The notes: generated by a model not told the origin, from the letters alone. A stretch of DNA of 64,000 bases from Methanofastidiosum sp. (GCA_035362715.1 DAOSDU010000006.1:29151-93150), one strand, 5' to 3'; positions 41,454-64,000 are shown, numbered from the stretch's first letter. Program-made: numbers and translations.

Positions 41454-41465
41454 AATTTTTCCTCC

Positions 41466-42003: not shown

Positions 42004-42031
42004 ACTACACCCCCCTTATTTTCATTTTTTT

Positions 42032-42191: not shown

Positions 42192-42195
42192 GAAA

Positions 42196-44010: not shown

Positions 44011-44128
44011 GCATAATTTGAAATGTTAATACTATTTATTGTTAACTGAAAAAATATCTTCAATAGGGTTATATAATTGTAAGATAAAAAATTATAAATA
44101 TTAATATAGACAATAAACAGGGATTAAA

Positions 44129-45417: not shown

Positions 45418-45425
45418 CTTAACAC

Positions 45426-45845: not shown

Positions 45846-45903
45846 CAGAACATATCTTAACTTTACCTCTATAATGATTTAGGATTTATTAAATAAAGAA
45901 AAT

Positions 45904-46938: not shown

Positions 46939-47261
46939 GCATTATAATATAATATTCAATATAAATATTTATTGTCTAGTTAATTAATATGATAATATTT
47001 TCTTTAGTAGAATTAAATAAGTTATAAAGTAATTTACTATTTTCATGGGGGGGCCAAAAATAATTTTTGTACCCATTGAGAAATTATTCTAATTGGCTCC
47101 CACATTAGATTATATGGTACATTTAAATAAGTATAGTTCTCCCGATTTATGGAATCATTTATAGTTAAAATTAAAATAGATTTTCGATATAGAGACATAG
47201 TAGACTAGGATATACTTATATTCATATTACTCCCATCCACTTATTAAGAGAATGATTTAAT

Positions 47262-47792
47262 ATGTCTGATATTTTAGGAAAGCAATGCCCAAGCTGCGGG
47301 ATTAAATTTGTCATGGAACTTGAAAAATGCCCTATATGTAATGTTTATTTAGATCTTATAAGTGATACAAAAGTTTTTGATAGCAGTGGCTTCACTAAAG
47401 ACGGCTTTGACAAGTATGGCTATGATGAAAAAGGCTACGATAAACATGGATTTGATAGAGACGGTTATAACAAAGCAGGATACTCCAAAGCGGGTTTTGA
47501 TAGAAATGGATTCAATAAACAAGGCATCCATAGATACACAGGCAGAAAATTTAACTTTCAAAATATTGATCAAAATGGCTACGATGACAAGGGATTTGAT
47601 AAAGAAGGGTATAACAGAAATGGCTTTGATAGGTTTGGCAGGGATAAAGACGGCTTTGACAAGGACGGGTACGACAAAAAAGGATTTGACAGAAACGGCC
47701 TTCACAGAAACGGGACAAGATATGGATATAACGGCTTTGACAAGGATGGCTATGATAAGGAAGGATACGATAATAAAGGAATTAAAAAATAA
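47262..47792 (+). CDS. Zn-ribbon protein with about 25 tandem 5-residue repeats G-[FY]-[DN]-[KR]-x
   Basis: CPSCG..CPICN then GFDKDGYDKKGFDRNGF... ; other frames of same repeats give low-complexity ORFs. Confidence 0.4.
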   Translation: MSDILGKQCPSCGIKFVMELEKCPICNVYLDLISDTKVFDSSGFTKDGFDKYGYDEKGYDKHGFDRDGYNKAGYSKAGFDRNGFNKQGIHRYTGRKFNFQNIDQNGYDDKGFDKEGYNRNGFDRFGRDKDGFDKDGYDKKGFDRNGLHRNGTRYGYNGFDKDGYDKEGYDNKGIKK

Positions 47793-47809
47793 AATCAAAT
47801 ATATAAAAT

Positions 47810-48424
47810 TTATAATTGAACAATCATTTTATTAGATGATTGCCATAGGTACCAAACAGCAATAGTACTATATGGGCCCCATTTTGAAGTTATACTATAA
47901 ATTTGTTCTTTAGATATATTTTTTATCCCATATGATCTCTCCAAGGCTCTAAGAAATCCTATATCATCCAAGGGTAAAACATCAAGCCTATTCATTGAAA
48001 AAATTAAAAACATCTCGGCTGACCACCTACCCAATCCTTTTATTTTTGTCAAGTATTCAATGATCTCTTGATTCGATAAATTATTAAAAAATTCGTCATC
48101 GACTCTATACGTTAAGAAGTGCATAGACAATCCGAGTATGTACTCAATTTTTCTTTCAGATATTCCAGCTTCTTTGAATCGATCTATTGAAATCTCCAAT
48201 ATGGCCTCTGGGGAGGGATTATTATTAATTACTTCCAAAAACCTTTTGTATATTGTATTTGCAACCCTTATAGATAGTTGCTGATGGATTATTATCCTTA
48301 CCAAAGAACTAAAATAGTTATTATTCTTTGAGAGTAAACATTCCCCTATGTCATCAATTATCTTTGATAAGACTGGATCCCTTGATTTTAAGTGATCAAT
48401 GGATTCTTTATACTCAGTTTTCAT
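47810..48424 (-). CDS. AlkA-like 3-methyladenine DNA glycosylase (HhH-GPD)
   Basis: IKGLGRWSAEMFLIFSMNRLDVLPLDDIGFLRAL matches AlkA HhH-GPD catalytic region. Confidence 0.65.
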   Translation of the reverse strand: MKTEYKESIDHLKSRDPVLSKIIDDIGECLLSKNNNYFSSLVRIIIHQQLSIRVANTIYKRFLEVINNNPSPEAILEISIDRFKEAGISERKIEYILGLSMHFLTYRVDDEFFNNLSNQEIIEYLTKIKGLGRWSAEMFLIFSMNRLDVLPLDDIGFLRALERSYGIKNISKEQIYSITSKWGPYSTIAVWYLWQSSNKMIVQL

Positions 48425-48519
48425 GATTGCCCCTATGAGTAATAAAAAATTAATATGTCTTTCTATTATCAGGATTTTTTGAGTAAACTTCTTAAATAAG
48501 GAATAATTAAATAGTTCGG

Positions 48520-49677
48520 ATGGAAGAATACGAGTATATTTCTCTTAAATTGCTTGAAGCTGCTATTAATCAAGAAATAAATACTTTTCTAGAGGAAGTG
48601 AAAAAATATAATTTTGATGAATTATTGAGATTTGTTTCTAAACAGGAAACGGGAAGAGGCGGATCTAAAGAAGAGGGAGAAAATAAAAACTTCGAGTATA
48701 AGACCCACGAAGTAGTTAGATATTACCAAAAACTTAGACTTGGCAAAGACGTCTCTAAATATTCTAGCGAAGCTGATAGATTAAAATATGAACTTAGATG
48801 GAAAATTGCAAGTGCTCCTTTTTTTTCAAAAGCCACAGAACACCTTGTCTACGATAGCATAACTAAATACTTGCTTAAAAACAATATTGGATATAAACAC
48901 TATTACTCCCCAAATGCATCAGATTTTGCCATAATTATAGAAAAAGAAGATATTCTAAAATTAATAAAACTACTAGATCTTGATATTACTTTGCCAGATT
49001 CAGATTATAATGGCATTGTGATGCATGTCGATGCTAAAAGTGTATCCGCTTTACTTAATCTTAATGATAGGCTTGTAAAGGCCGAAGCTTCAGGTAGGGA
49101 AAAAAGAGAATTAGGTCAATGCACTGCCAACTGGAATCAAATATCCTACATACCTAAAAAGTTGGAAGATGCTTTGAGAAAATATGATGATGAATTCAAA
49201 CATAAAAAACATGAAGTTTTGCCCCAATTTATATCAATCAATAGTTCAAAATATTATACTGTTACTAATTTTGTTAGTTGCCTGTCTTACCTACCCAAAG
49301 GCTCCACTTTTTTTAAAGATGATCTTGATACCCTAGATACCAGTTACTTTTCATTTGTTTTTTGCGTGATTTCAGTGCCAAACGGAATATTAAAAGATCG
49401 ATTCTATGATGAATTCTTTGGAGGGGTCAAAAATGGGTACGATAAGACCCTTGATCAAAAATATCCTTTTGATTCTAGGATATACATTAAAAGTTCAAAA
49501 GAAGAATATTTAGTATTCAAAAATTTAGAGGAAATGCCTAAAAGATTTTTCTATATGCCAGAAACGGAAAATGAATTTCAAGTAATGGTACTCACTAAAG
49601 GAGAAGTTATGACAAAAAAATTTATTTTAAATAAATCAACATCAAATAATTATAAACTAGATAAGTTTATTGGGTGA
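48520..49677 (+). CDS. Hypothetical protein, paralog 1 of three (degenerate PD-(D/E)XK-like core plus shared C-terminal module)
   Basis: About 40% identity to 50492..51550 along most of length; SPNASDFAIIIEKE segment; shared (I/V)(S/N)(I/V)PNG C-module. Confidence 0.5.
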   Translation: MEEYEYISLKLLEAAINQEINTFLEEVKKYNFDELLRFVSKQETGRGGSKEEGENKNFEYKTHEVVRYYQKLRLGKDVSKYSSEADRLKYELRWKIASAPFFSKATEHLVYDSITKYLLKNNIGYKHYYSPNASDFAIIIEKEDILKLIKLLDLDITLPDSDYNGIVMHVDAKSVSALLNLNDRLVKAEASGREKRELGQCTANWNQISYIPKKLEDALRKYDDEFKHKKHEVLPQFISINSSKYYTVTNFVSCLSYLPKGSTFFKDDLDTLDTSYFSFVFCVISVPNGILKDRFYDEFFGGVKNGYDKTLDQKYPFDSRIYIKSSKEEYLVFKNLEEMPKRFFYMPETENEFQVMVLTKGEVMTKKFILNKSTSNNYKLDKFIG

Positions 49678-50446
49678 TTTTATTTTTATATCTGATTTAG
49701 ACTTAGAAAGATTGGAAGAAAAATATTTGAATATTATTTATAATCAATTATATATAAACATAAATCCAGTAATTAAAGGGATTATGTCACGAGACAAAAT
49801 AACAATATATTGGAAAGAGAAATTTGCTAATCAATCAGAACAGAAAATAACTTCAGACATTGCAAAAGGCGCCGAAAGAATTTTTTCACATTATATGGTA
49901 GAAGAATGGGAACCAAATTCTTGCCCTATTGGGTCTGACTTATTCTATAAGACAAATAATGCATATGTGCATATTGAAATTAAAACGGCAAGAGTAAATA
50001 GCAGAACTCAAGATTATAAAGGTTTATGTCCTGTTAGCAAAAACCAGACTAGCTATTGTGCAACTGAATCCTACACAAAAAGAACTATGATTAAAACAAT
50101 TCCAAATTTACCTTATTCTTATTTTGAATATCCTTGTCTAACTTATGCCATACAAACGATATATGATCCAGATAATAATTATTCTACTTTAGCTGTACTT
50201 TTAATTAGTATTCCAAATGGCCAATTATTCAATATTTATGGTAATAATATAGCAAAAGCTGGAAAGTTGAAAAATGAATCTTTTAGATATGTATATTCAA
50301 GGAATCCGTATTTTGAAAAAATAAAAAAATGTACCCCATGTTCACCTCACCGAGTTAAATTCATTTATTTTAACGAAGGATATATTTTAGACAATGAAAG
50401 TCCCATTACAAAAGAATTTATTACTGGTCGCAATGATATACTTTAG
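49670..50446 (+). CDS. Putative PD-(D/E)XK restriction endonuclease-like protein sharing C-terminal module with flanking paralogs
   Basis: CPIGSD(x13)HIEIK: classic PD...ExK; C-terminal ISIPNG module shared with neighbours. Confidence 0.45.
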   Translation: MGDFIFISDLDLERLEEKYLNIIYNQLYININPVIKGIMSRDKITIYWKEKFANQSEQKITSDIAKGAERIFSHYMVEEWEPNSCPIGSDLFYKTNNAYVHIEIKTARVNSRTQDYKGLCPVSKNQTSYCATESYTKRTMIKTIPNLPYSYFEYPCLTYAIQTIYDPDNNYSTLAVLLISIPNGQLFNIYGNNIAKAGKLKNESFRYVYSRNPYFEKIKKCTPCSPHRVKFIYFNEGYILDNESPITKEFITGRNDIL

Positions 50447-50491
50447 TTTTATACCGATAACTCTATATTCTTTTGTCAGTTCGATAAATCG

Positions 50492-51550
50492 GTGTACCAA
50501 ATGGAACAGTACGAATATATCTCATTTAAACTAGTTGAGAAAGTTTTAGGGAATAAATATAATGAGTTCACAAAAAATATCAAAAATATTCATTTTGATG
50601 AAATGTTTCAGTTTCTTTCAAGGCAGGGAAGTGGCAGGGCACGGACCTTATATGATTATGATTTGAGAGATGTTCTTGAATCTTGCATCAATTCTTCATT
50701 GGATCGAGAAAAAGAAAAGGAATTAAGATGGAGACTCGCCTCCTCACCATTATATAAAGTAGCTATCGAAAGATTTGTCAATGAAAATATGACTAAATGG
50801 TTTGTTGAGAATGAAATTGAATATAGTATATACTATTCTCCAAATTCCTCAGATTATGCGGTCGTACTAACTAATAATTCTTATACTAAAATAGCTGAGA
50901 TCTTAGATCTAGACTTTGAGATTAATGAGAACTATGACGGCGGATTATTACTTGTCGATTCTAAGAGTTTGAATGCCTTAGGAAATCTTGGAGATTCTTT
51001 AGTAGAGGACGAAGTAGGGCTATTTGAAGCAAAATGGAATCAAATATCATATGAACCCCCATTGCTAAAAAAAGCAAAAACTGAGCATCCAGATCCTCTA
51101 ATGGCTAAAAAACATAGTGTGTTACCTCAGATTACATTAATAGAAAATAAGAAGTATGTAACTGTTACCTGTTTTGCAGTAGGATTAAATTATTTGGCAT
51201 ATCCTTCCCCTTTTTTCACTGATCCCTTGAATACTCTCAGCAGCAAATACTTTGATATAATCTTATATATAGTAAATGTTCCAAATGGAGTTCAAGGCAA
51301 TAAATTCGACAGATTCTTTTTTAATGGTAAAGGGGGATATGATGAATCAAATCCAAATTACCCTGTTGACTGCAGAATTGGTATCAAGAATAATGGTATA
51401 TATCTAAGGTTTGAGGATATAGAAGGTAACCCTAAAAGATTTTCTCATTTTCCATCAACGCCACGATTTTATAATATTTCATTATTCAAAAATAGAGGGA
51501 TAATAGGAAAAAGAGTAAAAGTTGGAGAGGTCATAAGACCTCTTTGTTAA
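50492..51550 (+). CDS. Hypothetical protein, paralog 2
   Basis: Homologous to 48520..49677 (MEQYEYISFKL..., ELRWRLASSP..., EAKWNQISYEP...). Confidence 0.5.
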   Translation: MYQMEQYEYISFKLVEKVLGNKYNEFTKNIKNIHFDEMFQFLSRQGSGRARTLYDYDLRDVLESCINSSLDREKEKELRWRLASSPLYKVAIERFVNENMTKWFVENEIEYSIYYSPNSSDYAVVLTNNSYTKIAEILDLDFEINENYDGGLLLVDSKSLNALGNLGDSLVEDEVGLFEAKWNQISYEPPLLKKAKTEHPDPLMAKKHSVLPQITLIENKKYVTVTCFAVGLNYLAYPSPFFTDPLNTLSSKYFDIILYIVNVPNGVQGNKFDRFFFNGKGGYDESNPNYPVDCRIGIKNNGIYLRFEDIEGNPKRFSHFPSTPRFYNISLFKNRGIIGKRVKVGEVIRPLC

Positions 51551-51620
51551 TACAATAACACTTAGGACAACCTTTAAATCTTATATATTTTTAATACTGA
51601 TACCCAATAATCAAAAGGTA

Positions 51621-53702
51621 ATGCTTATGCCAGAGGATACAATCTTACATGGAGATGTTTATGCATGTCTAACTTCTCTTGAGGATAATTCAATTGCAGT
51701 TGCTATAACTTCACCACCCTATTGGGCCCAAAGAGATTATGAATTTGAGGGCCAAATTGGTTCAGAAAAGACTTCAGAGGAATATATTGGGAAGCTAGTT
51801 TCAGTTTTTAGCAAACTAAGAGAGAAACTAAGAGATGACGGTATATTTTTCTTAAATGTTGGCGACAAATATTTTAACAAGTATGGAAAGTCGAACTTAC
51901 TTTTAATACCTTATAGACTTGCTTATCACATGCAAAAAGATGGTTGGATAGTTGAAGATATTATTATGTGGTATAAACCAAATCATATGCCCTCATCTGT
52001 GAAGGACAGATTTGCAAATACTTATGAGCCTGTAATAGTTCTATCCAAGAATAAACATAATATCTATAAAAAAGAAAATAATGTTCTTAGTATTCCATTA
52101 CAGCCTTCCAAATGGAAACACACCGCAGTATTCCCAGAGAAACTAGTTGATGAATTATTAAAAAAAATTAATCTAAAAAAGGAGGATATTGTACTAGATC
52201 CTTTCGGAGGTACTGGAACTACTGCTTATGCTGTTAAAAAGTTGAGAAACAACAATCTTAATCCTTTAGAAATATATTCTATAATGATCGAAATGAGTGA
52301 AGAATTTGTCAAGATTATCCAAGAGCGGGTTGATATACAAAAAATTGTTCCAGTAAACCATATAGAATATAAATGGAAATCCCTCACAAATGACTATCCT
52401 TCTTATACTGAAATTAATGAGATAATCAACAATATTTATGGAGAAGTATTCATTGCAAATACTTCAAAAGAATTAATTGCTGCATTTAATGGCATTACAG
52501 GTGACAATTTCAAGAAATACCACCGAAAGGACGCCCTATACTTTTTTGGTGTTAAGAATTGGGATCTAGAAGCCCTGTATTATGCCAACAGGATATATGG
52601 GTATAACTATGTTTTAAGAAATATGATTATTATTTCCAATAACTTCAAATGGTATCCTATTTTTGTATTTGCTAATGATAGCACCATAGTTCCGTATAAA
52701 TTTTATATTGATAGGATAAGAGTTGATCCTTTAATGAAAAATGAATTTGACTGGGATAAAATTAAATTTATTGGAATGAAGGTCAAAAGTAGTTTTTCTA
52801 AAGAAACTAAAGAGGGAACTATTGTTGAAATACTAAAAAATTATGAAGACGGGTTCCCTAAAATAGTATGTGTTCAATGGAATGGAAAAGCTTCTATAGA
52901 ATTTGTGATACACCCAGGGGAAGACGAATTTTTAATGGAAGGTTTGAAATTCTTATGTCCTTTTTGCCATACTACTCTAAAAGAAATATTTAATCCTATT
53001 TCAAAGACAAAATGCCCAAATTGTAAAAAGGAACTATTGAATGGCAAGGACTCTATACCAACGATTATAGAGCCAGAACAAATTGAGATAGAATTAGAAA
53101 ATCTAAAATCTATATATAGCCCCATTGGAAAAATTATTGAAATAAATTCATTTGAGAATAAGAAAAAAACGTCAAGTAAATTTGCAGATGTAAAAAGGGT
53201 TAACTGGGGCGCTTCTCCAGGTGCTAGAAAAATCATGGAAGGCGACTATTTTGCTAAAATGAGATTATATAGGATGGATCAACCAACAATTGCGAAAATA
53301 CTATCGATAATACGAGAGAGTAAAGACTTTAAAATTAAGGATTTATTGGAAGTTTTTCCTGATAATTATCTCCACACAGTAGGCCATTGGTTTAGAACTG
53401 ATTTTGGAGGTTCAGTTCCGAAAAATGAAGATGCAGAGAAACTAGAAGAGGTAATAGGTAATGGAGAAAAAATATGGGAAATTTTAAAACGTACAGCATT
53501 GAAATTTCAAACTGTTAAATCATCAATAAAAGGAAAAAATCCAGGCGATTTTATTTTTGATTTATCAGATGAAGAACTAATTAATTATTTGAGACTATTG
53601 TTTATGACACCAAATGATTATATAAACTCTCTAACAAATAAAGATAATATAAATATTAAAAATCATCAATCTGACTTAGATTCTTTCATGAAAAATGAAT
53701 AG
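51621..53702 (+). CDS. DNA amino-methyltransferase (beta class, N4-cytosine or N6-adenine) with about 450-aa C-terminal extension containing Zn ribbon
   Basis: Motif IV TSPPYW near N-terminus followed by motif I VLDPFGGTGTT (beta-class order); C-terminal CPFC...CPNC. Confidence 0.8.
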   Translation: MLMPEDTILHGDVYACLTSLEDNSIAVAITSPPYWAQRDYEFEGQIGSEKTSEEYIGKLVSVFSKLREKLRDDGIFFLNVGDKYFNKYGKSNLLLIPYRLAYHMQKDGWIVEDIIMWYKPNHMPSSVKDRFANTYEPVIVLSKNKHNIYKKENNVLSIPLQPSKWKHTAVFPEKLVDELLKKINLKKEDIVLDPFGGTGTTAYAVKKLRNNNLNPLEIYSIMIEMSEEFVKIIQERVDIQKIVPVNHIEYKWKSLTNDYPSYTEINEIINNIYGEVFIANTSKELIAAFNGITGDNFKKYHRKDALYFFGVKNWDLEALYYANRIYGYNYVLRNMIIISNNFKWYPIFVFANDSTIVPYKFYIDRIRVDPLMKNEFDWDKIKFIGMKVKSSFSKETKEGTIVEILKNYEDGFPKIVCVQWNGKASIEFVIHPGEDEFLMEGLKFLCPFCHTTLKEIFNPISKTKCPNCKKELLNGKDSIPTIIEPEQIEIELENLKSIYSPIGKIIEINSFENKKKTSSKFADVKRVNWGASPGARKIMEGDYFAKMRLYRMDQPTIAKILSIIRESKDFKIKDLLEVFPDNYLHTVGHWFRTDFGGSVPKNEDAEKLEEVIGNGEKIWEILKRTALKFQTVKSSIKGKNPGDFIFDLSDEELINYLRLLFMTPNDYINSLTNKDNINIKNHQSDLDSFMKNE

Positions 53703-53736
53703 TAATCTTTTTTAAGAGTAACAATTTTTTTTATTT

Positions 53737-53934
53737 ATGTCGCAACGTTTTTGCTACGAGTACATAAAAAACAACGCTTCAAATGAAAAACCTCTAACTG
53801 CAAAGAATATATCAAAAAATTGTCCAGGACTTGGAGAAAGAGCCATTGTAAAATCCTTGAAATTATTAAGAGAAAATAAGGAAGTAAAATATATCTATAA
53901 AAATGGAACTTATTTTTATACTGGCATATATTAG
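53737..53934 (+). CDS. Small hypothetical protein (possible wHTH controller)
   Basis: 65-aa ORF at 3' end of MTase operon; LGERAIVKSLKLLRE helix-like. Confidence 0.25.
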   Translation: MSQRFCYEYIKNNASNEKPLTAKNISKNCPGLGERAIVKSLKLLRENKEVKYIYKNGTYFYTGIY

Positions 53935-53982
53935 TTAATTTTGATAATAATTTTTATAAAGGTAAAATAATAATTAGCTATT

Positions 53983-54025
53983 GTCCAGGGCGCCATTACT
54001 TTCTTTTGGCAGAACAGCCCTGGAC
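53983..54025. other. GC-rich 9-bp hairpin (GTCCAGGGC...GCCCTGGAC, 25-nt loop) in AT-rich intergenic region
   Basis: Inverted repeat read directly; second IR GCCTAGG...CCTAGGC at 54070-54106. Confidence 0.5.
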
Positions 54026-54285
54026 TATTCAACAATTAAATTTATAAATCGAAATTAAGCGGGTAGATTGCCTAGGTGGTCAAATAGTCTGTAATTCAGC
54101 CTAGGCGAAATACTATTTCTAATTATCTAACAAGCTAAATTTAAGGTAGATTCTTCTCTTATTATAATTAATATATCATATTTATGCTATTTTTAGTTAG
54201 TTTTAAATAGTATTTATTTTTAATAGCTCTGATTAAGATTTGGTAATTTGGGGGGTTTATTATAAAAGAACCCGAAGATCTTGCT

Positions 54286-54486
54286 TTGGCTGCAGTTGGG
54301 AGATTGATTAGGGGAGAGGGGATAGAGAGAGTTTCTGAAGATGCATGCATAGCTTTGGCCTTGGCACTTGAAGAATATGCAAGGCAGATAACAAGAAAGG
54401 CAAAAGACTATTCGACTCATGCTAAAAGAAAAACAATAAAACTTGATGATATTGAGCTTGCACTGAAAGATTTTAAGATTAAATAG
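54286..54486 (+). CDS. Archaeal histone (HMf-like histone fold), TTG start
   Basis: AAVGRLIRGEGIERVSEDACIALALALEEYARQITRKAKDYSTHAKRKTIKLDDIELALKDFKIK matches archaeal histone consensus. Confidence 0.8.
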   Translation: MAAVGRLIRGEGIERVSEDACIALALALEEYARQITRKAKDYSTHAKRKTIKLDDIELALKDFKIK

Positions 54487-54653
54487 ACTATATATAAAAA
54501 TAGTAATAAATTACCAGATAACCCTGTCTCTCTTTCTCTTGCACTTCTTACAAACTAAAAAAGTTCCCTCGGTCTTCTGATCATAGCAATAGCTAGCAGT
54601 CCTCTCAATCGGCCTTGCCAAAACTACCCCGCATCTAACACAATAATATTCTC

Positions 54654-55322
54654 TCATGCTTTCATAATCCATGCCACTTCATAATATTTTGGCCTAATAT
54701 CAATTGTAAATCCTGCAACTCTTGTGGTGGTGTCCCCTGCAAAAGTCCAAGACCCTGCTACAGTCTTTGTATGGCTACCGCCAGTTGTCCCAGGATTTGT
54801 TGAAGAAGTCGTTATGCCCTGAAGGAAGCGGTCAATTAGATTAGGCGTCCCGTTGTTTCCATCGCAAAGAAGCCATCCTGATGGGATGCTTGTTAATACC
54901 CCACTCCAAGCCACAATAACTCCAGGCGGTACAAACGAGGGTAATCCCGAAATAACGTTTGTAATTGAAGAGATTGAACTAGCCCCCGCAACAACTGTCG
55001 CAAGTAGCATCGCATCATCCGGCAAAGTTACGGAAGTTGAGATTGTGAGCCAGTTAGCGCCGTTGTCAGAATGCAGATAAACATAGTTTGTGCTATTTGC
55101 TGTTGCTGTCAAAGATTCTGCAGCATCTGAAACAACTTGAAACATGCCCCCGGCCGCATCCTTTACATATGCAGTTCCAGCAGAAACGCTAAGATTAAGG
55201 CCACTGTCAACTGAAACTGTAAATCCTGTCTTTTTGCCTTCAGGAAAGAAATCCCCGAAATACTGCCTGAAATCAGCCGAGGTGATTTTTGCCCCTGCCG
55301 ATACCTTTTTTGTAAATGTCAT
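54654..55322 (-). CDS. Phage tail fiber protein with tail-collar domain
   Basis: GVIVAWSGVLTSIPSGWLLCDGNNGTPNLIDRFLQG...GGSHT matches Phage_tail_collar domain. Confidence 0.75.
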   Translation of the reverse strand: MTFTKKVSAGAKITSADFRQYFGDFFPEGKKTGFTVSVDSGLNLSVSAGTAYVKDAAGGMFQVVSDAAESLTATANSTNYVYLHSDNGANWLTISTSVTLPDDAMLLATVVAGASSISSITNVISGLPSFVPPGVIVAWSGVLTSIPSGWLLCDGNNGTPNLIDRFLQGITTSSTNPGTTGGSHTKTVAGSWTFAGDTTTRVAGFTIDIRPKYYEVAWIMKA

Positions 55323-55332
55323 GAATATACCT

Positions 55333-55836
55333 TTAAAATTCTATAACGTAATAAACAGTCATTGTTTTTGTGTTGCTGAAAGTTTTTGTTGGAGAGATCA
55401 ATGAGTGAGTAAGAAGGTCTGTCTGATTGGCAGCATAAAGTCCAAGCTCCGCCCATGTGCCATAATAATCAGCTTCCGTGTAATCAAAATAATAAGTTGC
55501 CTCAGATTTATTTGAATAGGTATTGTTATGCAAGCTCCCGGGGACATAAGATTTTAATGATCCTAACTGTGTTGTTAGGGCCAGATCTGTTGCTGCAACT
55601 GCCGAGCTTCCAGTACCCACCGCTAACTTTCCTAGAACATGTTTATTTGCATCATAATCTCCTGTCAGCACATCTGCAAGTGCAGCTTTTAGTTTGTTTG
55701 TGATCAGATTCTTCTGCCATGACCCTCCAATGACCTTGTCTCTTTCAAGATCATATTCTACAATCTTGAATTTTCCAAGGTAAGGATTTTTATCCCCCCT
55801 CACTAGTTCTATTATGTCCAATCGCTCACGTCCCAT
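55333..55836 (-). CDS. Putative virion structural protein, paralog of 60787..61176
   Basis: LAVGTGSSAVAATDLALTTQLG vs ALGSGTTAEANDQTALVTEI shared pattern. Confidence 0.4.
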   Translation of the reverse strand: MGRERLDIIELVRGDKNPYLGKFKIVEYDLERDKVIGGSWQKNLITNKLKAALADVLTGDYDANKHVLGKLAVGTGSSAVAATDLALTTQLGSLKSYVPGSLHNNTYSNKSEATYYFDYTEADYYGTWAELGLYAANQTDLLTHSLISPTKTFSNTKTMTVYYVIEF

Positions 55837-58800
55837 CTCGCTTCATTGTCATCATATTCGGTCTCATAATCTGTTGCCGTCTCAAAAATATTTTCTGATA
55901 ATACGACTGCAGGTGTTTCAGTTGTCTCTTTATAATCTGTTGTCTGCTCCTGTGATTCCAGGATATTTTTGACTTTCAGCCTTCTAAGCTCGGAAAACAA
56001 GTTTGCAAATGCGGAGTAAAAGTCATCTGCAGCTGTGCATGTCAAGGTGACTGTTGAAATCTGCCGCTCTTTTATCTCGTAAGTTACCGACAGTATTGTT
56101 TGATCTTCAAGCGTTGGCATTCCAGGAAGGGAAGTAAACTCAATAACCTGGCCCGCCTTCAATCTTTTCCCGGGGGGATTTATCACGAGTCGGGATGCAT
56201 TTTTTAGCGCATATTCTATTGCCTTTTGCTGCGCCAAAGTCAATGCAGTGTCTGCCTCCTGGATGGTCAGATCTATAATTGGGATATCTGTATGGTATTC
56301 AAACATCATTGTTTCTGTTGTGGCGCTTTTTACAATCTGCACCCCATAGTAAGTCTTGAAGGCCAGCTTCCCAGTTGCTGCGGTCCATGATCCAGCAAGA
56401 GTTTTGTATTTATGGCCGCTTGTCGTTGTGTTATTATGCACAACTTTGTAAGTGTCTGTTGCCGTGCCAATAATATTGAAAACGATCCAGTTTGTTTTTG
56501 ATATGTCAAGCTGACAATCAACAAGCGTTGTTTTTACCCAGCCGCCGTCAGTGGAAATATCTTCTTGAGGGATTGATCCAAAGCCGATAATGCTTCCAGT
56601 TGGATTTCCGCCGTTATCTTCTACGATTGTGAAGATCATATCATCAAGAGGATTTCCTACCTTTTTGACATAAACGTCCAGGAACAGTATATTTGATTTT
56701 GAGGGCGTAAATGTCGAGGCATAGGATTTATCGTGCAGAGAAACTTCTGTTGTAGTTGTGGACTGGCTGAAATCCAAAAATCCCTGTTTGCCGCCGACAA
56801 CATACACCCTGTCAAAGTATTTCATTGCATCTCGCTTGATCTTAGCGCTTATGATTTCCCCACTTGATATAACGTGGTCTGCTGATAGATCCGCCGCATC
56901 GTAGAAGTTCAAATCGTCATTTTCATCAATGTAAAAGTCAGCACCCACAAGGCTAGCAACTTTATCAATTGCCTGGCCAACATACTCCCATGCAAAGGTC
57001 ATGGATGGAATTGCTTCCGCAAAAGTTTCAAGATTAGTTGTTGTTATTTCAGGGCAATACCTAGAAATAATATCTGAAACTATTTCATCGGCAGTTTTGT
57101 TGTTATAAGTTTCGGCGCCTGATATAGTTGTTTGGCCGGCCCTAATTGACCCATAGTCTTCGCCAGAAAGTATTATGCGATTGCTCCTGTACTCGTCCAG
57201 CTCAAACTCAACTGAGGTGATAAGGCCATGGAAGATCTTTGTGACCGGCGGATCATTTTCATCGACATAGAAGAATACTTCATTCCCCACCTCAAATGTT
57301 TCGGATAACGCCCCGTTATCATTGTATAAACTGATTTCAAAGTAATCCGATCTTTTTCCTTTCTCGTCAGTGAATCTTGCATATTCAATTATGTTTAAGG
57401 CTGAAAGATCTATTTCAACATCGCCAGCCTGTCCCACAATTATGGCCCAAAAAAGTGGTGTCGCTCCGGATGTTTCAGATTTTATTGATAAGGCGCCATA
57501 AGAAGAATAATTTATTGATTCAACCTCAGTGAACTGAAATGCTCCTTTGGATTCAAAAGTGAGTATCTCAATATCTGTATCAACATCCTGGATAATTATG
57601 GAACTATGAGAATCTACTTCTATTAATGAGTGATAGACGCATGCAGTTGCAACTTCCATGGTACTGGCGCCAGCTGCTTCGTTTTCCCCCACAAATGAAG
57701 TATTCAATTGAATATCCATTTGCGCATCACTTGTTATTGCTTCACTGATGATATATGAGGTGATGCCGTTGAATGTAAGATCCCCTATCCCGATAATGTT
57801 TAGTGTTTTTTTGAAATCTGTTTTTATCTCTGCTGTGATTGATCCCATGCCGGCAATCTCTATCAGGTCAGTGTCTGAATCGATGTCCTGGAGCAAAAGA
57901 GATCCATTTGCAGCATATGTAGCGCTTATTATGTAATCTGTGTTTGCGGCTAACTCTAGGGAACCGGCACCGAGCATTATAATATCGGGAGGGGTCCATA
58001 AAGTATAAACAATTATTTTAGCTTTTGAGATATAATCTATTAGCTCAAGATCCTGGATCTGGATTAATCCATGGCCAGAGAAAAGGATTAGTTCGATATC
58101 ATAATCAATGTCCTGAATTGTAACTGAGGAAGCTGCACTCAATAAAGCGCTATAAGTATAATCTGTTGTCGTGATTATCTCTACTGCAGCTTGAGAAGAA
58201 ACTTCAAGAAGATCATACTTATTCATATGCCCTGTTAAGGTGACAAAGGACAATCCTGTCGTGATTATATTAGAAAAATAATTCCCGATTGCAGATAGTT
58301 CAACTGAAGATGCCGCATTCAAAAAGGCGCTATAAGTATAATCTGTTGTCCGGCTTATTTCAACTGACCCGGCACCGATAAAAGTGATAAGTTCAATATC
58401 AGTGTCTATATCATTTGTGACTATTGAAGCGGTGCTTGTGTAATTGATACCATAAATATAATCCGTGACTGTTGTAATTTCAATTGCTGCATTGCTTTGG
58501 TATTCTACCACTGCCGTGGACCCCGAATAATCCCATACTCCAAATGCACCGGCACTGGTAAATGTGATCAGTTCAATATCAGTCTCTACGTCATAAGCGA
58601 CTATTGAAGCAATGCTTGTGTAGTTTACGAGAGATGAGTAATTTGTGGCTGCTGCGATTTGTATTTCACTTTGGGCCCCAAATGATATTATCTCAAGATC
58701 AATGTCAATATCTTGTATTGTAACTGATCCAGCGCCGCCAAATGCGACTTCAACTACTTTCCCTAAGATTGCGCCTATTTCAAAAGTTGCTGCGCCGGTG

Positions 58801-60713
58801 ATGTTTGAAATACTGACCAACTGTTTATGCCCTAAAGCTTCAGTTGTTCCGGCCCCATCAAAAGTTACAGATAAGGCCAAGCTGGAAATTGCAGAAACGG
58901 CAGATGATCCATAACCTGAAAATGTGATAAGTTCAATATCAGTGTCTTTGTCCTGGGAAACGACAGCGCCCAAGCTGGTATAGTTAATATTACAAATATA
59001 ATCAGTAACAGTTGCAACTTCAACTGCCGCATAGCTTTGGTAAGTGATTGTTTGGCTGTATGCTGCTGTTGCCGCAATTGTTACTGCACCTGTCCCTGTA
59101 AGTTCAGCTAATGAATTATACCCCACTTGTTCTTCACAAGAAACACTGCCTTTGCTGGCGATAAGTATTGTTTCAATATCGGTATCAATATCTTGTATAA
59201 CTATTGATCCATATCCTGTGAGAGCTATAGTCTCAGAATATATCAAGCCATAAGTGCAAGAAACTGCACCGTTTGAAGTATAAGTTATTGTTGCTGCTCG
59301 AGCTACTCCGGCTGCGGTCACCGCAACTGCAGCATTTCCAGTATAAGTAACTGTTTCTTCATATTCCTCTCCAGAAGCCTCGGTATATTCTATCACAAGC
59401 TTTGGGTCATAGCTTGTCCCAGAATACTCAGACGAATAGATATATCCGGTATAAGCAGTAGTCAGGCTGGGCGGACTATCTGCATAATCATAGGTGTATT
59501 CCATCAAGCAGTATTTTGTTGTGCCTGTTGTTGAAACGTCTGATTTGCCAGTTGCGTCAAGGTCGATTGTTTTGTAGCCGTTGGTGCTTGTAGCTATAGT
59601 GCCATAAGAGCTCCCGCTATACGCTGTGAAATCGCTTGTTGTAAGTGAAGCTGCCTGTGTCCCTTTCAATGCGCAAAGCGTGGCACCATTGCTAGTTGAA
59701 TAGACATAAACAGAAAGAGCGGCTGTATCGATTGTTGCGCCGTCTGGGATATCTGAAGTATCAAAGTATAGAAATCCCCTTCTTATCGTGTATGCATAGC
59801 CTAGAAGCTGCTTATCAAAGGATTTGCTCGTGCTGACAACTATGGCTGTGGCGGTGTCATAAACTGTGGCACCACTTGTGCGTGCCGTGCTCCAAGACGT
59901 GCTGTATGTTCCTTTTATATCCCCGTCTGCAGAAGTGGAATAATAAGTTGTAGAATCGATATATATTGTTTTTTTGCCTTTCAGTTTTTCATTGCCGGGA
60001 CCGAGAAGGCCGTATTTTTGGACCATCCACGCCCAATTTTTGGCCTTATCATCAAAGTACTTGACATAGAAAATTCTGCCTTCTTTTTTTACGATCTTGT
60101 GCTTCAAAGGTTGCGAGAAGTAATCAAGATTTTCTACCCACATCCTGGGCCTGGGTATCCAGATTTTTTCTTTTGTATCCAGTTCAAAAGTAAATGTTTC
60201 TGCCTTTTTCCCCTTCGGATGGAGTCCCTTCAGATGCAGCTCATACCAGACTTCAACATCTTTCAAATGGATCTTTTCGGTATCCACCACAATAGATTCC
60301 TGGACATAGCGCTCATGGACCCTGTTGTGGATCCAGATGCCATCAGAAATGACGTGCTTCAGTTCGTAATCATTTACCCGCACAATTTTGGTAAATCTAT
60401 CAAAAGTAACTTCTTCCCCATTCAGTATGATCTTAGCGATACTTGCTTCGTATTGCTGATCATACCCTTTTCGGAAGCCAAAATATTTTTCTTTCTTTCT
60501 GTCTTTTCTAAATCCAACAGAAAATTTGTGCTTGTCCATTATGAATTTGTCTTTTTCTTCACGGATCGTTATATCAATAGTTCTTAGATTGTGATTGTCA
60601 TCTTCATAATGGATGGGCTTTTCGTGATAGATCTTTCTGAACTTTCCTGGCGCAATTTGAAATGTTTTTGAAGTAAGAGTCCTTTTTTCAATTACCTCTT
60701 GCTTTTTATTCAC
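55812..60713 (-). CDS. Giant (1633 aa) tail/baseplate protein with central tandem repeats of about 55 aa and C-terminal distal-tail/tail-lysin-like region
   Basis: At least 8 repeats with core IQDIDTDIELITF..G.GS; located immediately after tape measure and small protein as Dit/Tal are in siphoviruses. Confidence 0.55.
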   Translation of the reverse strand: MNKKQEVIEKRTLTSKTFQIAPGKFRKIYHEKPIHYEDDNHNLRTIDITIREEKDKFIMDKHKFSVGFRKDRKKEKYFGFRKGYDQQYEASIAKIILNGEEVTFDRFTKIVRVNDYELKHVISDGIWIHNRVHERYVQESIVVDTEKIHLKDVEVWYELHLKGLHPKGKKAETFTFELDTKEKIWIPRPRMWVENLDYFSQPLKHKIVKKEGRIFYVKYFDDKAKNWAWMVQKYGLLGPGNEKLKGKKTIYIDSTTYYSTSADGDIKGTYSTSWSTARTSGATVYDTATAIVVSTSKSFDKQLLGYAYTIRRGFLYFDTSDIPDGATIDTAALSVYVYSTSNGATLCALKGTQAASLTTSDFTAYSGSSYGTIATSTNGYKTIDLDATGKSDVSTTGTTKYCLMEYTYDYADSPPSLTTAYTGYIYSSEYSGTSYDPKLVIEYTEASGEEYEETVTYTGNAAVAVTAAGVARAATITYTSNGAVSCTYGLIYSETIALTGYGSIVIQDIDTDIETILIASKGSVSCEEQVGYNSLAELTGTGAVTIAATAAYSQTITYQSYAAVEVATVTDYICNINYTSLGAVVSQDKDTDIELITFSGYGSSAVSAISSLALSVTFDGAGTTEALGHKQLVSISNITGAATFEIGAILGKVVEVAFGGAGSVTIQDIDIDLEIISFGAQSEIQIAAATNYSSLVNYTSIASIVAYDVETDIELITFTSAGAFGVWDYSGSTAVVEYQSNAAIEITTVTDYIYGINYTSTASIVTNDIDTDIELITFIGAGSVEISRTTDYTYSAFLNAASSVELSAIGNYFSNIITTGLSFVTLTGHMNKYDLLEVSSQAAVEIITTTDYTYSALLSAASSVTIQDIDYDIELILFSGHGLIQIQDLELIDYISKAKIIVYTLWTPPDIIMLGAGSLELAANTDYIISATYAANGSLLLQDIDSDTDLIEIAGMGSITAEIKTDFKKTLNIIGIGDLTFNGITSYIISEAITSDAQMDIQLNTSFVGENEAAGASTMEVATACVYHSLIEVDSHSSIIIQDVDTDIEILTFESKGAFQFTEVESINYSSYGALSIKSETSGATPLFWAIIVGQAGDVEIDLSALNIIEYARFTDEKGKRSDYFEISLYNDNGALSETFEVGNEVFFYVDENDPPVTKIFHGLITSVEFELDEYRSNRIILSGEDYGSIRAGQTTISGAETYNNKTADEIVSDIISRYCPEITTTNLETFAEAIPSMTFAWEYVGQAIDKVASLVGADFYIDENDDLNFYDAADLSADHVISSGEIISAKIKRDAMKYFDRVYVVGGKQGFLDFSQSTTTTEVSLHDKSYASTFTPSKSNILFLDVYVKKVGNPLDDMIFTIVEDNGGNPTGSIIGFGSIPQEDISTDGGWVKTTLVDCQLDISKTNWIVFNIIGTATDTYKVVHNNTTTSGHKYKTLAGSWTAATGKLAFKTYYGVQIVKSATTETMMFEYHTDIPIIDLTIQEADTALTLAQQKAIEYALKNASRLVINPPGKRLKAGQVIEFTSLPGMPTLEDQTILSVTYEIKERQISTVTLTCTAADDFYSAFANLFSELRRLKVKNILESQEQTTDYKETTETPAVVLSENIFETATDYETEYDDNEARWDVSDWT

Positions 60714-60786
60714 ACCTGAAAAACTGTAGTCGTATCCGGCCAGTCTATCACTTTACCCAATTTTAAAAAAATAAAAAAAAATAGAT

Positions 60787-61176
60787 TTATGCCCTGGATT
60801 CAGTCTCTTTGATAATGATCTGCAGAGAGTCGCCGCCTTCAACAGCCTTTGTCGCTGAGAACTTGTGCCTCATCAGCATGTCCCCTGCAGGATCCCCGTC
60901 ATCGTTGAAAATTCCAACTTCGTTGACGGATAAGCTTCCTGTAAAGGAAAAGGTCTTTGTCCACTTTGCCTTGTAGTCAGCCTCATATTCGCAAGTGGCA
61001 GCCGCCCTTGCTCCGCCGTTAGTTGTAATTTCTGTGACTAATGCTGTTTGGTCGTTTGCCTCTGCTGTTGTTCCAGAGCCTAGTGCGATATATGTGAATG
61101 GGGCAGTAGATACACCATTCAAGAGTTTGGCCTTCATTTCAAGGCCTTTGTTCACGAGTGTTGCCATAAGATTCAA
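60787..61176 (-). CDS. Putative virion structural protein (129 aa)
   Basis: Paralogous to 55333..55836; between TMP and giant protein. Confidence 0.4.
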   Translation of the reverse strand: MNLMATLVNKGLEMKAKLLNGVSTAPFTYIALGSGTTAEANDQTALVTEITTNGGARAAATCEYEADYKAKWTKTFSFTGSLSVNEVGIFNDDGDPAGDMLMRHKFSATKAVEGGDSLQIIIKETESRA

Positions 61177-61287
61177 CTCTCCGTTTTTTCTATTTTCGGG
61201 TAGTCATTTCCCATCTCTTTTATGTTGCCGTCTTTATCTCTGACTACCCATGTCACGAGATATTCCGTCTTGCTTTTTGCTTCCATT

Positions 61288-63150
61288 CTAGAATCCCACC
61301 CTGGTGATTCTATTGATTCGCTTCAGGATTTCATCGGCGATCTTGTCTGGGTCGCCACTTCCTGAAATATTGAAGGTATTGTTCACGACCATGCTTTTTC
61401 CCTGGAGCTTTGATCCATCCTTGAACGCCAGAATATTGTCATCCTTGTGGAACTGCACAACTTCGCCTTTTTTTGTAATCAAAGCATCGTTTACTCTTTT
61501 TGAGATTTCTCCAGTTGCTGTGTTCATGTAACCGACGAGAGCACCACCGGAGCTATTGCGGATTGTCTCGTAAGTTACGCCGCCGCTTGAAAAAGAATTT
61601 GTAACGACTGCATTCCCCCTTTCGGGGCCTTCATAGACTATATCGCTTCCAGCTTGAACTCTTTCAGAAGATCCAAAAGTCCTGCAGCCGCTGCCGCCCC
61701 CTCCGGAAGGATTCAACATCTGCCTGACAATGTTCATTGCGCTGTTCATGTAGTTGACTGCACCGCCAGCAGTTTGGCCCAACTGATCAACTTCCCCTGC
61801 AGTTTTGCTTGTGCTGCCCCTCAAAATAGCCAGATATTCATTTGCAAGCTGCACCGCATTTGTGTTGTTTGTGATTTCAAGACTGTTTTGCTTTGTCTTT
61901 TCCTTGTTTTCATTTTCAGCACGCTCTATCTCTCGCAAGCGTCCCAATGCATCTGCGGCATTTTCTGATTCTATTGGAAGTGTGTTTGGACTTACAGCCC
62001 CAGGGCTAACCCACTGCCCCCTAGCAGCCGCCTCATAAGAGGTATAAGCTCCGGCCTTTTCATACTGCACTTGTTGTCCCGCATAATCCCAAATGGCCAT
62101 GCCCCCGGGATTTGTTGCCCTAAGTCCAAGATCTATAATCTTGTCAAGGTGTAAATCCTTGATAATGACACTTATCCTGGAAAGCGCATCTTCAATTATG
62201 CCCAAAATATATGATACCCTGTCAAAAGCATCGGCCAGTTTTGTGATCGCCTCTTCAGAAGAAGTAACGCCAGCGAGCTTCATGATAATGTTGCCAAGTT
62301 CAGAACCAAAGCTTATCGAATGTTCTAAAAGATTCCCAAACGCATCTACAAGCGGTTGGATTTCCCCGGAGTTTATCATCTCTGAAATCTTGTTTGCAAT
62401 GTTTTCTAATGTTGGCGCTATTGCCCCGGTCAGCTCATCTCCAAAAAGCGTCTTTAGATTTTGGACCTGATTTTGAAAATTGGCAAATATCCCTGCAGTT
62501 GAGTTCCTGAGCGCCTCTGCACTTCCGCCAAAAGATTTTTCCATCTGCTTTGCCAGGTAGTCCATCTTTTGTGCTGCCGACATTGATTTCATGCTGACTG
62601 AATCAAGGACGACACCGTTCTGTTCGAGCGTTGATGTGCTCCCACTAAGAGCCATTGCAACTTGCTTTGTTGCAGTCTCTAGATCCATACCCTCTGCTGC
62701 TGCATAGTCTTCCGCTGCTAACAAGAGCTTTAGCGACCGGTCATAATCCTTTGTTACGGCTATCAGATTGTTGAAGCTTTTCCGAATTGAGATGTCGTCG
62801 ATGGATGTCAGTTCAGAATGCTGGCCTATCACCTTTTCAATCTGCTTTGAGTAGGACTGTATTCCTGCATTTTTCAAAAGATTTCCTGTCTGTGACTGAA
62901 ACTTTGATTGCTCTAAAGAGAGCTTTACCATCTCACGATTCAAGTTTTGTACTGCGGCAATGCCGTAGGTCGTTATGGCAGTTGCCATCGTTCCCACAGC
63001 TACCTCTGCCGCATGGCCCAAAGAATACATTGCCCCGCCGGCTTTGGATGTGCCCTTCTCAAGGCCGCCAAGCGCCGACTCAACATTTTTTATAGGGCCT
63101 GATGCCCTGTCTTCAGCAGTTACAGTTATCTTGACATTTTGCTCTTGCAT
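61288..63150 (-). CDS. Tail tape measure protein
   Basis: 620 aa, helical/low-complexity, Gly-rich tracts, ETATKQVAMALSG-type segment; follows two small overlapping chaperone-like ORFs. Confidence 0.6.
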   Translation of the reverse strand: MQEQNVKITVTAEDRASGPIKNVESALGGLEKGTSKAGGAMYSLGHAAEVAVGTMATAITTYGIAAVQNLNREMVKLSLEQSKFQSQTGNLLKNAGIQSYSKQIEKVIGQHSELTSIDDISIRKSFNNLIAVTKDYDRSLKLLLAAEDYAAAEGMDLETATKQVAMALSGSTSTLEQNGVVLDSVSMKSMSAAQKMDYLAKQMEKSFGGSAEALRNSTAGIFANFQNQVQNLKTLFGDELTGAIAPTLENIANKISEMINSGEIQPLVDAFGNLLEHSISFGSELGNIIMKLAGVTSSEEAITKLADAFDRVSYILGIIEDALSRISVIIKDLHLDKIIDLGLRATNPGGMAIWDYAGQQVQYEKAGAYTSYEAAARGQWVSPGAVSPNTLPIESENAADALGRLREIERAENENKEKTKQNSLEITNNTNAVQLANEYLAILRGSTSKTAGEVDQLGQTAGGAVNYMNSAMNIVRQMLNPSGGGGSGCRTFGSSERVQAGSDIVYEGPERGNAVVTNSFSSGGVTYETIRNSSGGALVGYMNTATGEISKRVNDALITKKGEVVQFHKDDNILAFKDGSKLQGKSMVVNNTFNISGSGDPDKIADEILKRINRITRVGF

Positions 63151-63310
63151 GCTCTTTTCTCTTTTTGATAAGCTCTTCGGCCTGAATTCTCTTTTCTTCC
63201 TGGGTGTCTTCCGGATTCTGGTACAAAATATAGCCCCTCACAAGCCTCCTTTTTTCAAGGATTGTGAGTCTTGGTATTTCCCAAACCTTATATCCAAGCT
63301 GGTGCAGCAC
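63113..63310 (-). CDS. Tail assembly chaperone, downstream (T-like) ORF, probably expressed as frameshift extension of 63318..63638
   Basis: Its frame is open upstream to 63364, overlapping last 15 codons of upstream ORF; overlaps TMP start. Confidence 0.4.
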   Translation of the reverse strand: MLHQLGYKVWEIPRLTILEKRRLVRGYILYQNPEDTQEEKRIQAEELIKKRKEHARAKCQDNCNC

Positions 63311-63317
63311 CTGCTCC

Positions 63318-63638
63318 TCAAGGAGCCTTGCCTTTGTTTCCAGGCTCAGAACGAAAGGATTCTTTTATGTCACTGATATCAAGGAGCTTTTGGACTAGTT
63401 GCGCAATTGCCTTTGTCTTCCCAAACTTTTTGATTTCATCAGAGGAAAGCTTTGGCTCAACAATATGTGCTGATAGAATATCGTATCCTTTTTGAGGATC
63501 TGACAAAAGTGCTATTTCGCCCTCAGGGATTGGTATGACCTTGGCATCCTTGCCATGCTCAATCTCGATAATGATTGCTTTCAGCTCCCCTTTTTCATCC
63601 CGCTCATGCAGAAAGTATGATTTTTCAACTATCGCCAT
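63318..63638 (-). CDS. Tail assembly chaperone (G-like)
   Basis: 106-aa acidic ORF between major-tail-like gene and TMP. Confidence 0.4.
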   Translation of the reverse strand: MAIVEKSYFLHERDEKGELKAIIIEIEHGKDAKVIPIPEGEIALLSDPQKGYDILSAHIVEPKLSSDEIKKFGKTKAIAQLVQKLLDISDIKESFRSEPGNKGKAP

Positions 63639-63647
63639 ATGATCGCC

Positions 63648-64000
63648 TCACCAGTTGGTCTTTGCAAAAGGTGCCTCCCAAAAAACTTCTGCGGATGTGC
63701 CAGAGAATGAAAACTTGTAGCTCATCTTTGTGTCAAGGGGGAATACTGCGCTGTAGTCTGAAAAGATGCAGTTTGAAAGAGTTATCTTTAGAGAATCTGA
63801 TGCCTCGTCTGCATAGCCCTTGTCAATTACAATATCCTTTGCAGCAAGTGCTTCATTTGTAGAGGTCCCGCCAAGCACCAGCTGCTCTATTTCGTTTGCA
63901 GTTATTGAGTCTGGGATGTAAGCTGTTATTGATCCATTTATTGCCTCAAACTTTCCGGAGTATGCTGTCGAGGGGGATCTTGCAGCAAGGCCGTGTCCTA
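63648..64000 (-). CDS. Putative major tail protein, C-terminal part (ORF open through window end)
   Basis: No stop in frame between 63879 and 64000; position upstream of chaperones/TMP. Confidence 0.35.
   Translation of the reverse strand, partial: GHGLAARSPSTAYSGKFEAINGSITAYIPDSITANEIEQLVLGGTSTNEALAAKDIVIDKGYADEASDSLKITLSNCIFSDYSAVFPLDTKMSYKFSFSGTSAEVFWEAPFAKTNW

Follow-up and report, generated by a model that had tools for sequence, protein, structure and literature searches.

The DNA examined here, a stretch of 64,000 nt from Methanofastidiosum sp. (GCA_035362715.1 DAOSDU010000006.1:29151-93150) that is referred to as the window, carries at positions 54654-64000 a block of minus-strand genes which very probably form the tail module of an integrated siphovirus-like provirus. 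Methanofastidiosum is an uncultured, methyl-reducing methanogen, and to our knowledge almost nothing is known about its viruses. Gene families were searched in Pfam, PHROG and PDB sequences, RNA genes were predicted with ARAGORN and Rfam, defence genes were identified with PADLOC, and viral relatives were collected from IMG/VR. All open reading frames (ORFs) that a first-pass annotation of the same DNA had listed for the block were found on the minus strand with the sizes it gave.

Read along the minus strand, the genes come in the order tube, chaperone(s), tape measure, hub and fibre. The ORF that leaves the window (63648-64000) represents the C-terminal 117 codons of a 326-amino-acid (aa) protein and by itself matched no family. 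The full-length copy on the related contig L003 (9011-9991), which is 100% identical to the window, matched Pfam Phage_tube_2 (2e-15) and PHROG 290 (5.5e-8), and only through this protein was the ORF, previously described as major-tail-like, recognized as the tail tube gene. No PDB sequence relative of the tube protein was found, nor any match in the phage collection. Next to it lies a 106-aa ORF (63318-63638), a tail assembly chaperone candidate by its position between the tube and tape measure genes, for which Pfam and PHROG contained no matching family; an identical protein is encoded on 10 contigs, and its ratio of non-synonymous to synonymous substitution rates (dN/dS) was 0.06-0.08. Three-frame translation revealed a second chaperone-like frame of 83 codons (63113-63364, minus strand), shifted by +1 relative to the 106-aa ORF, which overlaps the last 15 codons of that ORF and the start of the tape measure gene. 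In contig L008 (82% nucleotide identity) the amino acid sequence of this frame was kept, with conservative substitutions. Judged by sequence, the pair resembles the G/GT chaperone arrangement, and a GTG at 63310 could permit independent initiation of the second frame. The 620-aa tape measure protein (61288-63150, minus strand) was assigned by its position between chaperone and hub and by a weak match to the tape measure family PHROG 991. No Pfam or PDB relative was detected for it; the exact protein is also encoded on other assemblies, and its length of 620 aa was kept in all relatives, with dN/dS of 0.07-0.20. In other assemblies, as seen in the gene calls on L001, a 37-aa ORF was called at 61173-61286.

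Three small proteins with fibre-type matches flank the large hub gene. A Gp80-like small fibre or adaptor protein of 129 aa (60787-61176, minus strand) matched Pfam PF23140 Gp80 (1.9e-6), PHROG 5417 (3e-13) and also the tail-fibre family PHROG 4176, and its dN/dS was 0.02-0.04. The fibre-associated protein of 167 aa (55333-55836, minus strand) matched PHROG 5417 (8.5e-13) and PHROG 4176 "tail fiber" (1.7e-11), with dN/dS of 0.03-0.07. The first-pass annotation had called the latter a paralog; the two proteins do share a family, both matching PHROG 5417 at about 1e-13, but the homology is distant, as pairwise comparison gave 26% identity (E = 0.007). The last gene of the block (54654-55322, minus strand) encodes a 222-aa tail fibre or receptor-binding protein with a collar domain, as indicated by matches to PHROG 1800 "tail collar fiber" (1.2e-12), the PDB tail fibre chains 9nxk (2.5e-8) and 9qgo (6e-7) and a weak match to Pfam Collar. 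It was present in 35 IMG/VR loci, and its dN/dS was 0.03-0.07.

The 1633-aa protein (55812-60713, minus strand) is by far the largest product of the block. An ATG at 60539 would give a product of 1575 aa, and this may be the real one, since homologues begin at the equivalent of Met59 and one relative has a stop codon upstream of it. Three parts could be distinguished, namely an N-terminal domain (about residues 60-445), a region (about 445-1085) in which a degenerate repeat containing the motif QDIDTDIELI occurs 7-9 times, and a C-terminal domain (1085-1633; window 55815-57461); relatives conserve both terminal domains and differ from one another in the repeats. The full protein had no sequence match in Pfam, PHROG or PDB. 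A word-indexed search of 5.8 billion proteins returned only 9 full-length homologues, to which the C-terminal domain alone added 8, and an exhaustive HMMER profile search with this domain recovered 1425 relatives, most of them free-standing proteins with a length near 500 aa. A profile built from 50 of the C-domain relatives matched the baseplate hub of Haloferax tailed virus 1, HFTV1 (9h4p_BD, 8.6e-19), a contractile-injection-system hub (2e-8) and Mu gp44 (7e-5). An AlphaFold model of the domain reached a predicted local distance difference test (pLDDT) score of 84 with the 50-sequence alignment; a model from a 9-sequence alignment (pLDDT 32) was set aside. Foldseek comparison of the accepted model with T4 gp27 and VgrG gave a probability of 1.0, and the gp27/gp44/VgrG-type domain carries an inserted beta-sandwich. 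On the strength of these profile and fold matches, the 1633-aa protein is predicted to be the tail-tip baseplate hub (Tal-like), with an unusual N-terminal extension. The earlier description of it as a distal tail or baseplate protein can thus be narrowed to a baseplate hub; no distal tail protein (Dit) was found.

Against four relatives, dN/dS was 0.02-0.23 for every tail gene, and there were no internal stops in the window. This purifying selection and the uninterrupted frames argue against a decaying remnant, and the provirus therefore appears, from its sequence, to be intact.

Over 3.8-8.5 kb the contigs L001, L002 and L003/L045 match the window with 100% identity, and they reach 11.4 kb further. 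Besides the complete tube gene, they contain genes for proteins of 148 and 299 aa just upstream of the tube without any matches, for small proteins of 76, 88 and 64 aa for which there is no evidence of function, and for a 390-aa HK97-type major capsid protein (PHROG 24667, 1.4e-38), a 284-aa prohead protease (PHROG 23555, 2e-34; Peptidase_S78) and a 123-aa gp10-like connector (weak Pfam match). Further on, about 5-8 kb past the window end, lies a gene (L003 1483-4287) for a 934-aa fusion of portal, MuF and ADP-ribosyltransferase parts, recognized by Pfam and PHROG matches. The ADP-ribosyltransferase domain was of the ADPrib_exo_Tox family, and judging from this domain composition the fusion protein may be an ejected effector. 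The proposal that the provirus continues past the window end was borne out by these genes. Head-plus-tail synteny was kept in more than 20 IMG/VR contigs, with the capsid gene in 23 IMG/VR loci. The large terminase gene (TerL) was found only in relatives whose tail regions are about 82% identical or more distant, namely L008, L074/L073, L116 and L120. In L008 the order is methylase, TerL, methylase, MvaI-type endonuclease and portal; L116 has a 406-aa tyrosine integrase gene about 6 kb upstream of TerL, and L076/L077 carry a 258-aa integrase.

These data bear on whether the block could be a tailocin (a phage-tail-like bacteriocin) or a decaying prophage remnant with tail genes only. The window itself contains only tail genes and no integrase gene, and remnants do exist at the tRNA gene described below as the integration site, about 4.9 kb long with a truncated TerL fragment between two att copies (L091 and L093). 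The first-pass annotation had noted that a lack of head or packaging genes downstream would speak for such an origin. However, on the identical contigs the tail genes are directly preceded by full-length genes for capsid, protease and portal, all tail genes are of full length and under strong purifying selection, and the head-plus-tail order recurs among the IMG/VR contigs. A tailocin or remnant is therefore very unlikely, and the reading as a provirus stands.

The left end of the element was located at a tRNA-Leu(TAA) gene (39974-40059, plus strand; ARAGORN and Rfam). A metagenome scan with the 3′ end of this gene yielded 34 loci, in eight of which partial tRNA copies started exactly at the equivalent of position 40006, preceded by a conserved arm adjoining a gene for a 264-269-aa tyrosine integrase. 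Because the eight partial copies all begin at this position, the att core was defined as the 3′ 54 nt of tRNA-Leu(TAA) (40006-40059), which is the attL of the provirus. In four independent contigs (L084, L094, L095 and L114) the full tRNA was followed by the same virus left end as in the window. The element was previously taken to begin at 54654; the provirus in fact extends down to the tRNA-Leu gene at 40059. Its first part (40060-40957) is AT-rich and non-coding, with a guanine-plus-cytosine (GC) content of 0.29, as established from the sequence and from blastn junctions. It was also noticed that about 810 nt of it (40147-40957) are absent from five related proviruses, the junction 40146|40958 being found by blastn in L084, L094, L095, L112 and L114, and are contiguous in L070 and L106. 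This segment is AT-rich, has weak 14-nt inverted repeats at its borders and contains a 43-aa zinc-ribbon ORF (40216-40346).

A junction at a 54-nt repeat raises the question of whether the virus is integrated at all, as assemblers commonly break or misjoin at such repeats, and a non-integrated viral genome could have been fused to host DNA in a chimeric contig where both have a tRNA-like sequence. In agreement with this, L070, L106 and L112 end exactly at the repeat, and a 35.3-kb contig that spans 41273 through the tail module consists of viral sequence only. On the other hand, five independent assemblies (the window and the four contigs above) join the 5′ half of the tRNA, which lies outside the repeat, to the virus left end; host and viral proteins are encoded with consecutive locus tags on one 105.6 kb contig at NCBI; and the same repeat borders other integrase-bearing elements on contigs 119 and 201 kb long. 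In L094, the host flank is 99.4% identical to that of the window and the virus only 79.6% identical, which speaks against an assembly artefact and for integration that was independent or is still ongoing. A chimera is thus most improbable, and we regard the virus as integrated at tRNA-Leu(TAA).

The same tRNA gene appears as an integration hot spot (loci L081-L114), its 54-nt core being used by at least three occupants. The commonest, found in 15 loci, is an element of about 10 kb with primase-polymerase/D5-helicase and tyrosine integrase genes, bounded by both repeats in L096; another is the remnant with the truncated TerL mentioned above. A gene transfer agent was also considered, and was ruled out by the polymorphic site with its three different occupants and by the integrases in relatives.

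Base composition of the block had been described as visibly richer in GC than the surrounding DNA, and the computations agreed with this. Mean GC was 0.427 in the tail block, 0.362 in host DNA (1-39973) and 0.307 at 45846-54509; in 2-kb windows it was 0.40-0.456 at 54-64 kb versus 0.29-0.33 at 44-54 kb; and at third codon positions (GC3) it was 0.400 in tail genes versus 0.293 in 33 host genes (Mann-Whitney p = 5e-4). The contrast is qualified by some host DNA at 12-17 kb with values up to 0.40-0.41, and the tail genes share their element with another GC-rich block, at 41-44 kb. The high GC had been taken to indicate recent acquisition, but it tells of foreign origin and not of recency; better evidence for mobility comes from the different occupants found at the same tRNA in different contigs.

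Between the left end and the tail module, two regions were recognized. A conserved left arm (40976-45845), common to the IMG/VR relatives, encodes proteins of 71, 102, 164, 153, 295, 95, 248 and 139 (DUF6508) aa on the minus strand and one of 82 aa on the plus strand, for which Pfam and PHROG provided no function. In the relatives these genes sit downstream of the tail fibre genes, and their GC3 of 0.45 is like that of the tail genes. Just downstream of the 164-aa gene there is a low-complexity repeat of TAC/TACA type (41466-41520), at which L069 and L071 break. The similarity of the relatives to the window ends about 145 bp past the fibre gene (about 54510) and resumes in the left arm at 41.0-45.8 kb (about 45815), and for this reason the region in between (45.9-54.5 kb), formerly viewed as a low-GC island in the DNA surrounding the tail genes, is a variable slot inside the virus and not host DNA.

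The cargo of this slot (45904-53934, GC 0.31; Pfam and PADLOC) consists of genes for a NucS/Cas4-like nuclease (344 aa), a 176-aa protein, an HhH-GPD glycosylase (204 aa), a 385-aa protein, a MwoI-like type II restriction endonuclease (258 aa) with a MwoI_N annotation, a 352-aa protein, a type II DNA methyltransferase (693 aa) and a 65-aa protein. PADLOC reported MTase_II (6e-225), REase_II (6e-11) and, for the NucS/Cas4-like nuclease, PDC-S02 (5e-19), and by these family assignments the slot is predicted to carry a type II restriction-modification system. Relatives have type III restriction-modification or UvrD-nuclease (UvrD-PD-(D/E)XK) genes at the same place. In L016, tRNA-Met and tRNA-Arg genes (11177-11341) directly follow the tail fibre gene at the edge of the slot. 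A second variable slot was noticed between TerL and portal, occupied in L008 (2555-4260) by an MvaI/BcnI restriction-modification pair; L120/L121, from a metagenome-assembled genome (MAG) of Methanofastidiosum, have the same pair and about 5 kb of host-like genes there (L120 9318-15632), including those for a PAS sensor, ferredoxin, MTH865, PNPOx and an ArsR-type regulator.

Several lines of evidence connect the element with its archaeal host. Exact NCBI matches of the RPA, 198-aa and tape measure proteins of the window (HOI77034.1; HOI77038.1, PLI06_05445; HOI77063.1, PLI06_05575) all come from one MAG of Methanofastidiosum sp., in which they lie on a contig of up to 105.6 kb and the locus tags run consecutively from PLI06_05445 to PLI06_05575. 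The window has archaeal markers in the form of an intron-containing tRNA, RPA and a NucS domain, and the viral relatives sit in MAGs titled Candidatus Methanofastidiosum sp. or "Thermococci archaeon". Portal relatives with 95-96% identity also occur in MAGs labelled Firmicutes bacterium ADurb.Bin080 and Prolixibacteraceae (L006 and L007); these are most likely viral contigs binned into wrong genomes. Elsewhere in the window, a 145-nt tRNA adjoining tRNA-Cys was detected by Rfam at 6942-7086 and missed by ARAGORN, presumably because of its intron, and fits an archaeal host. A host cluster at 14449-17576 includes a biotin carboxylase gene and one whose product matched the alpha subunit of malonate decarboxylase (E 2e-266); the use of malonate as a carbon source by Methanofastidiosum has been proposed.

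The type of tail deserves separate consideration, the rival reading being a myovirus with a contractile tail. The hub model had Mu gp44-type and contractile-injection-system hubs as its top structural matches, and room for a short sheath is left by two proteins without matches (299 and 148 aa) whose genes directly precede that of the tube. Yet no sheath, gp25-like or gp6/J-like wedge family was found among the ORFs from capsid to fibre, the hub is followed by only two small genes and one fibre, the best sequence match of the hub family is the siphovirus HFTV1, and the nearest cultured relatives by capsid, HVTV-1, HCTV-1 and HCTV-5, are siphoviruses. A myovirus is accordingly very unlikely. The earlier interpretation as a siphovirus tail cassette was sustained, the gene order being that of the long, non-contractile type without sheath or baseplate-wedge families.

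Some further observations weigh, together with the hub matches and the two unassigned proteins just mentioned and the lack of an integrase gene in the window, against an intact siphovirus-like provirus. The far end of this copy (terminase, integrase and attR) was not recovered, as even the longest identical contigs break off some 11-12 kb beyond position 64000. A second att copy was found neither in the window, nor in the relative loci first gathered, nor in IMG/VR, partial copies occurring only on other contigs, and the 264-aa integrase used as query gave no match in IMG/VR. In L106, L112 and L099 the integrase arm and core are joined to the virus left end, L099 having the 264-269-aa integrase beside it; these junctions may be excised circles, or tandem arrays instead. 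No match to Dit or the Sipho_tail family was obtained for any ORF in Pfam or PHROG, and no baseplate-tail connector was found; the Dit or adaptor role could fall to the Gp80-like protein of 129 aa or to the N-terminal domain of the 1633-aa hub. For the tape measure and the chaperones, assignment relied mainly on position and size, the PHROG match of the former having E = 1e-3. No canonical slippery site was recognized for the 83-codon frame and it had no family match. Of the two small overlapping chaperone ORFs in the first-pass annotation the overlapping frames are real, the second being conserved in L008, and their role as chaperones is less firm. Taking both sides together, we consider it highly probable (roughly 85%) that 54654-64000 encodes the tail module of a siphovirus-like provirus that is integrated and apparently intact. 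On this reading the virus belongs to the class Caudoviricetes and is temperate and archaeal, the tail-assembly half of its structural operon lying within 54654-64000.

By capsid, the nearest virus in GenBank was Caudoviricetes sp. vir519 (BK063666.1; 31% identity), a circular genome of 38.8 kb from mangrove sediment with Methanofastidiosa annotated as host. The two viruses share the host class, a similar genome size and a syntenic structural operon, in which vir519 has TerL, portal, neck, protease region and capsid, then proteins of about 298, 149, 335, 95 and 611 aa, and then a very large distal protein. However, only capsid (31%), portal (22%) and protease (24%) were similar at the BLAST level, with no BLAST-detectable similarity in any tail protein or terminase. 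The distal tail of vir519 comprises proteins of 606 and 1437 aa, in contrast to 129, 1633, 167 and 222 aa in the window virus. The record of vir519 is of a circular genome and lists no integrase; the window virus is integrated at a tRNA. The habitats may also differ, as record names of the relatives (ADurb.Bin080) suggest anaerobic digesters. Next by capsid, and the closest cultured relatives by this protein, were the haloarchaeal viruses HVTV-1, HCTV-1 and HCTV-5 (29-31% identity over 97% of the length, E 1e-35), which have genomes of about 103 kb, about three times larger, and halophilic hosts. Tube and fibre, the only two tail proteins searched against the phage collection, showed no similarity to these viruses.

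With three proteins similar by BLAST to vir519 (22-31%) and only the capsid similar to the haloviruses, the virus appears to fall outside the genus and family of either. It probably represents a new lineage of high rank. The kind of element is not new, as low-identity relatives (vir519 and the haloarchaeal viruses) and surveys of archaeal proviruses exist; contigs of this virus group are already in IMG/VR, and its proteins are in NCBI as "hypothetical". The statement in the first-pass annotation that head-tailed proviruses of low-GC, non-halophilic archaea are sparsely described now applies less, given the Methanofastidiosa tailed virus genome in GenBank and large surveys of archaeal proviruses, one of which lists a few in Methanobacteriota_B.

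The tail tip can be compared with that of HFTV1, an archaeal siphovirus for which a complete cryo-electron microscopy model is available (PDB 9H4P/9H7V; PMC12494034) and which gave the best sequence match of the hub family. In HFTV1 the hub core is N-terminal and followed by C-terminal globular domains, whereas in the window virus it is C-terminal behind a 1085-aa repeat-bearing extension. No counterpart of the HFTV1 baseplate-tail connector was found in the window virus, and HFTV1 is a lytic virus of a halophile, in contrast to an integrated provirus. The tape measure of HFTV1 has about 341 residues per 560 Å of tail (PMC12494034); that of the window virus, with 620 aa, is about twice as long, and a longer tail is predicted. 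In HFTV1, three fibres are attached to the hub, which leaves the particle together with the tape measure during ejection (PMC12494034).

By analogy with characterised siphoviruses and with the HFTV1 structure, a mechanism can be proposed. The 326-aa tube protein would polymerise around the 620-aa tape measure, helped by the 106-aa chaperone and its +1-frame partner, to give a tail of roughly 90-100 nm as scaled from the HFTV1 tape measure. A trimer of the 1633-aa protein would close the tip through its C-terminal gp27-like hub, which would hold fibres and be released with the tape measure on ejection, as in HFTV1. The N-terminal extension of the hub, the inserted beta-sandwich, the 129-aa and 167-aa proteins and the 222-aa collar fibre would together form the adsorption apparatus for the host envelope, and the restriction-modification genes in the cargo slot would guard the lysogen against other DNA. 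A wider reading, which we hold only tentatively and consider rather doubtful as a whole, is that the group (>35 IMG/VR contigs) constitutes a lineage at family level, not classified before, of temperate archaeal siphoviruses that infect only Methanofastidiosum. The adsorption device of these viruses would differ from that of every solved tail, with an inverted hub domain order, an N-terminal extension perhaps taking the Dit or adaptor role and a repeat copy number perhaps tuning host range. Two cargo slots, located behind the fibre gene and between TerL and portal, would exchange restriction-modification and other defence genes, making the provirus a mobile defence island.

These results do not overturn current views; the element is solid, useful and of an expected kind. 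The only GenBank genome assigned to the host class shares about 31% capsid identity with the window virus. Now that the integration site is fixed to 54 nt of tRNA-Leu-TAA, almost the whole gene map has been drawn and a population of relatives is available, host assignment of IMG/VR contigs, metagenome tracking of lysogeny and the design of attP/attB assays become testable. The restriction-modification cargo slots provide a concrete archaeal case of a provirus carrying host defence, and the link between the predicted hub and that of HFTV1 carries the sole complete structural model of an archaeal tail over to a virus of a non-halophilic methanogen.

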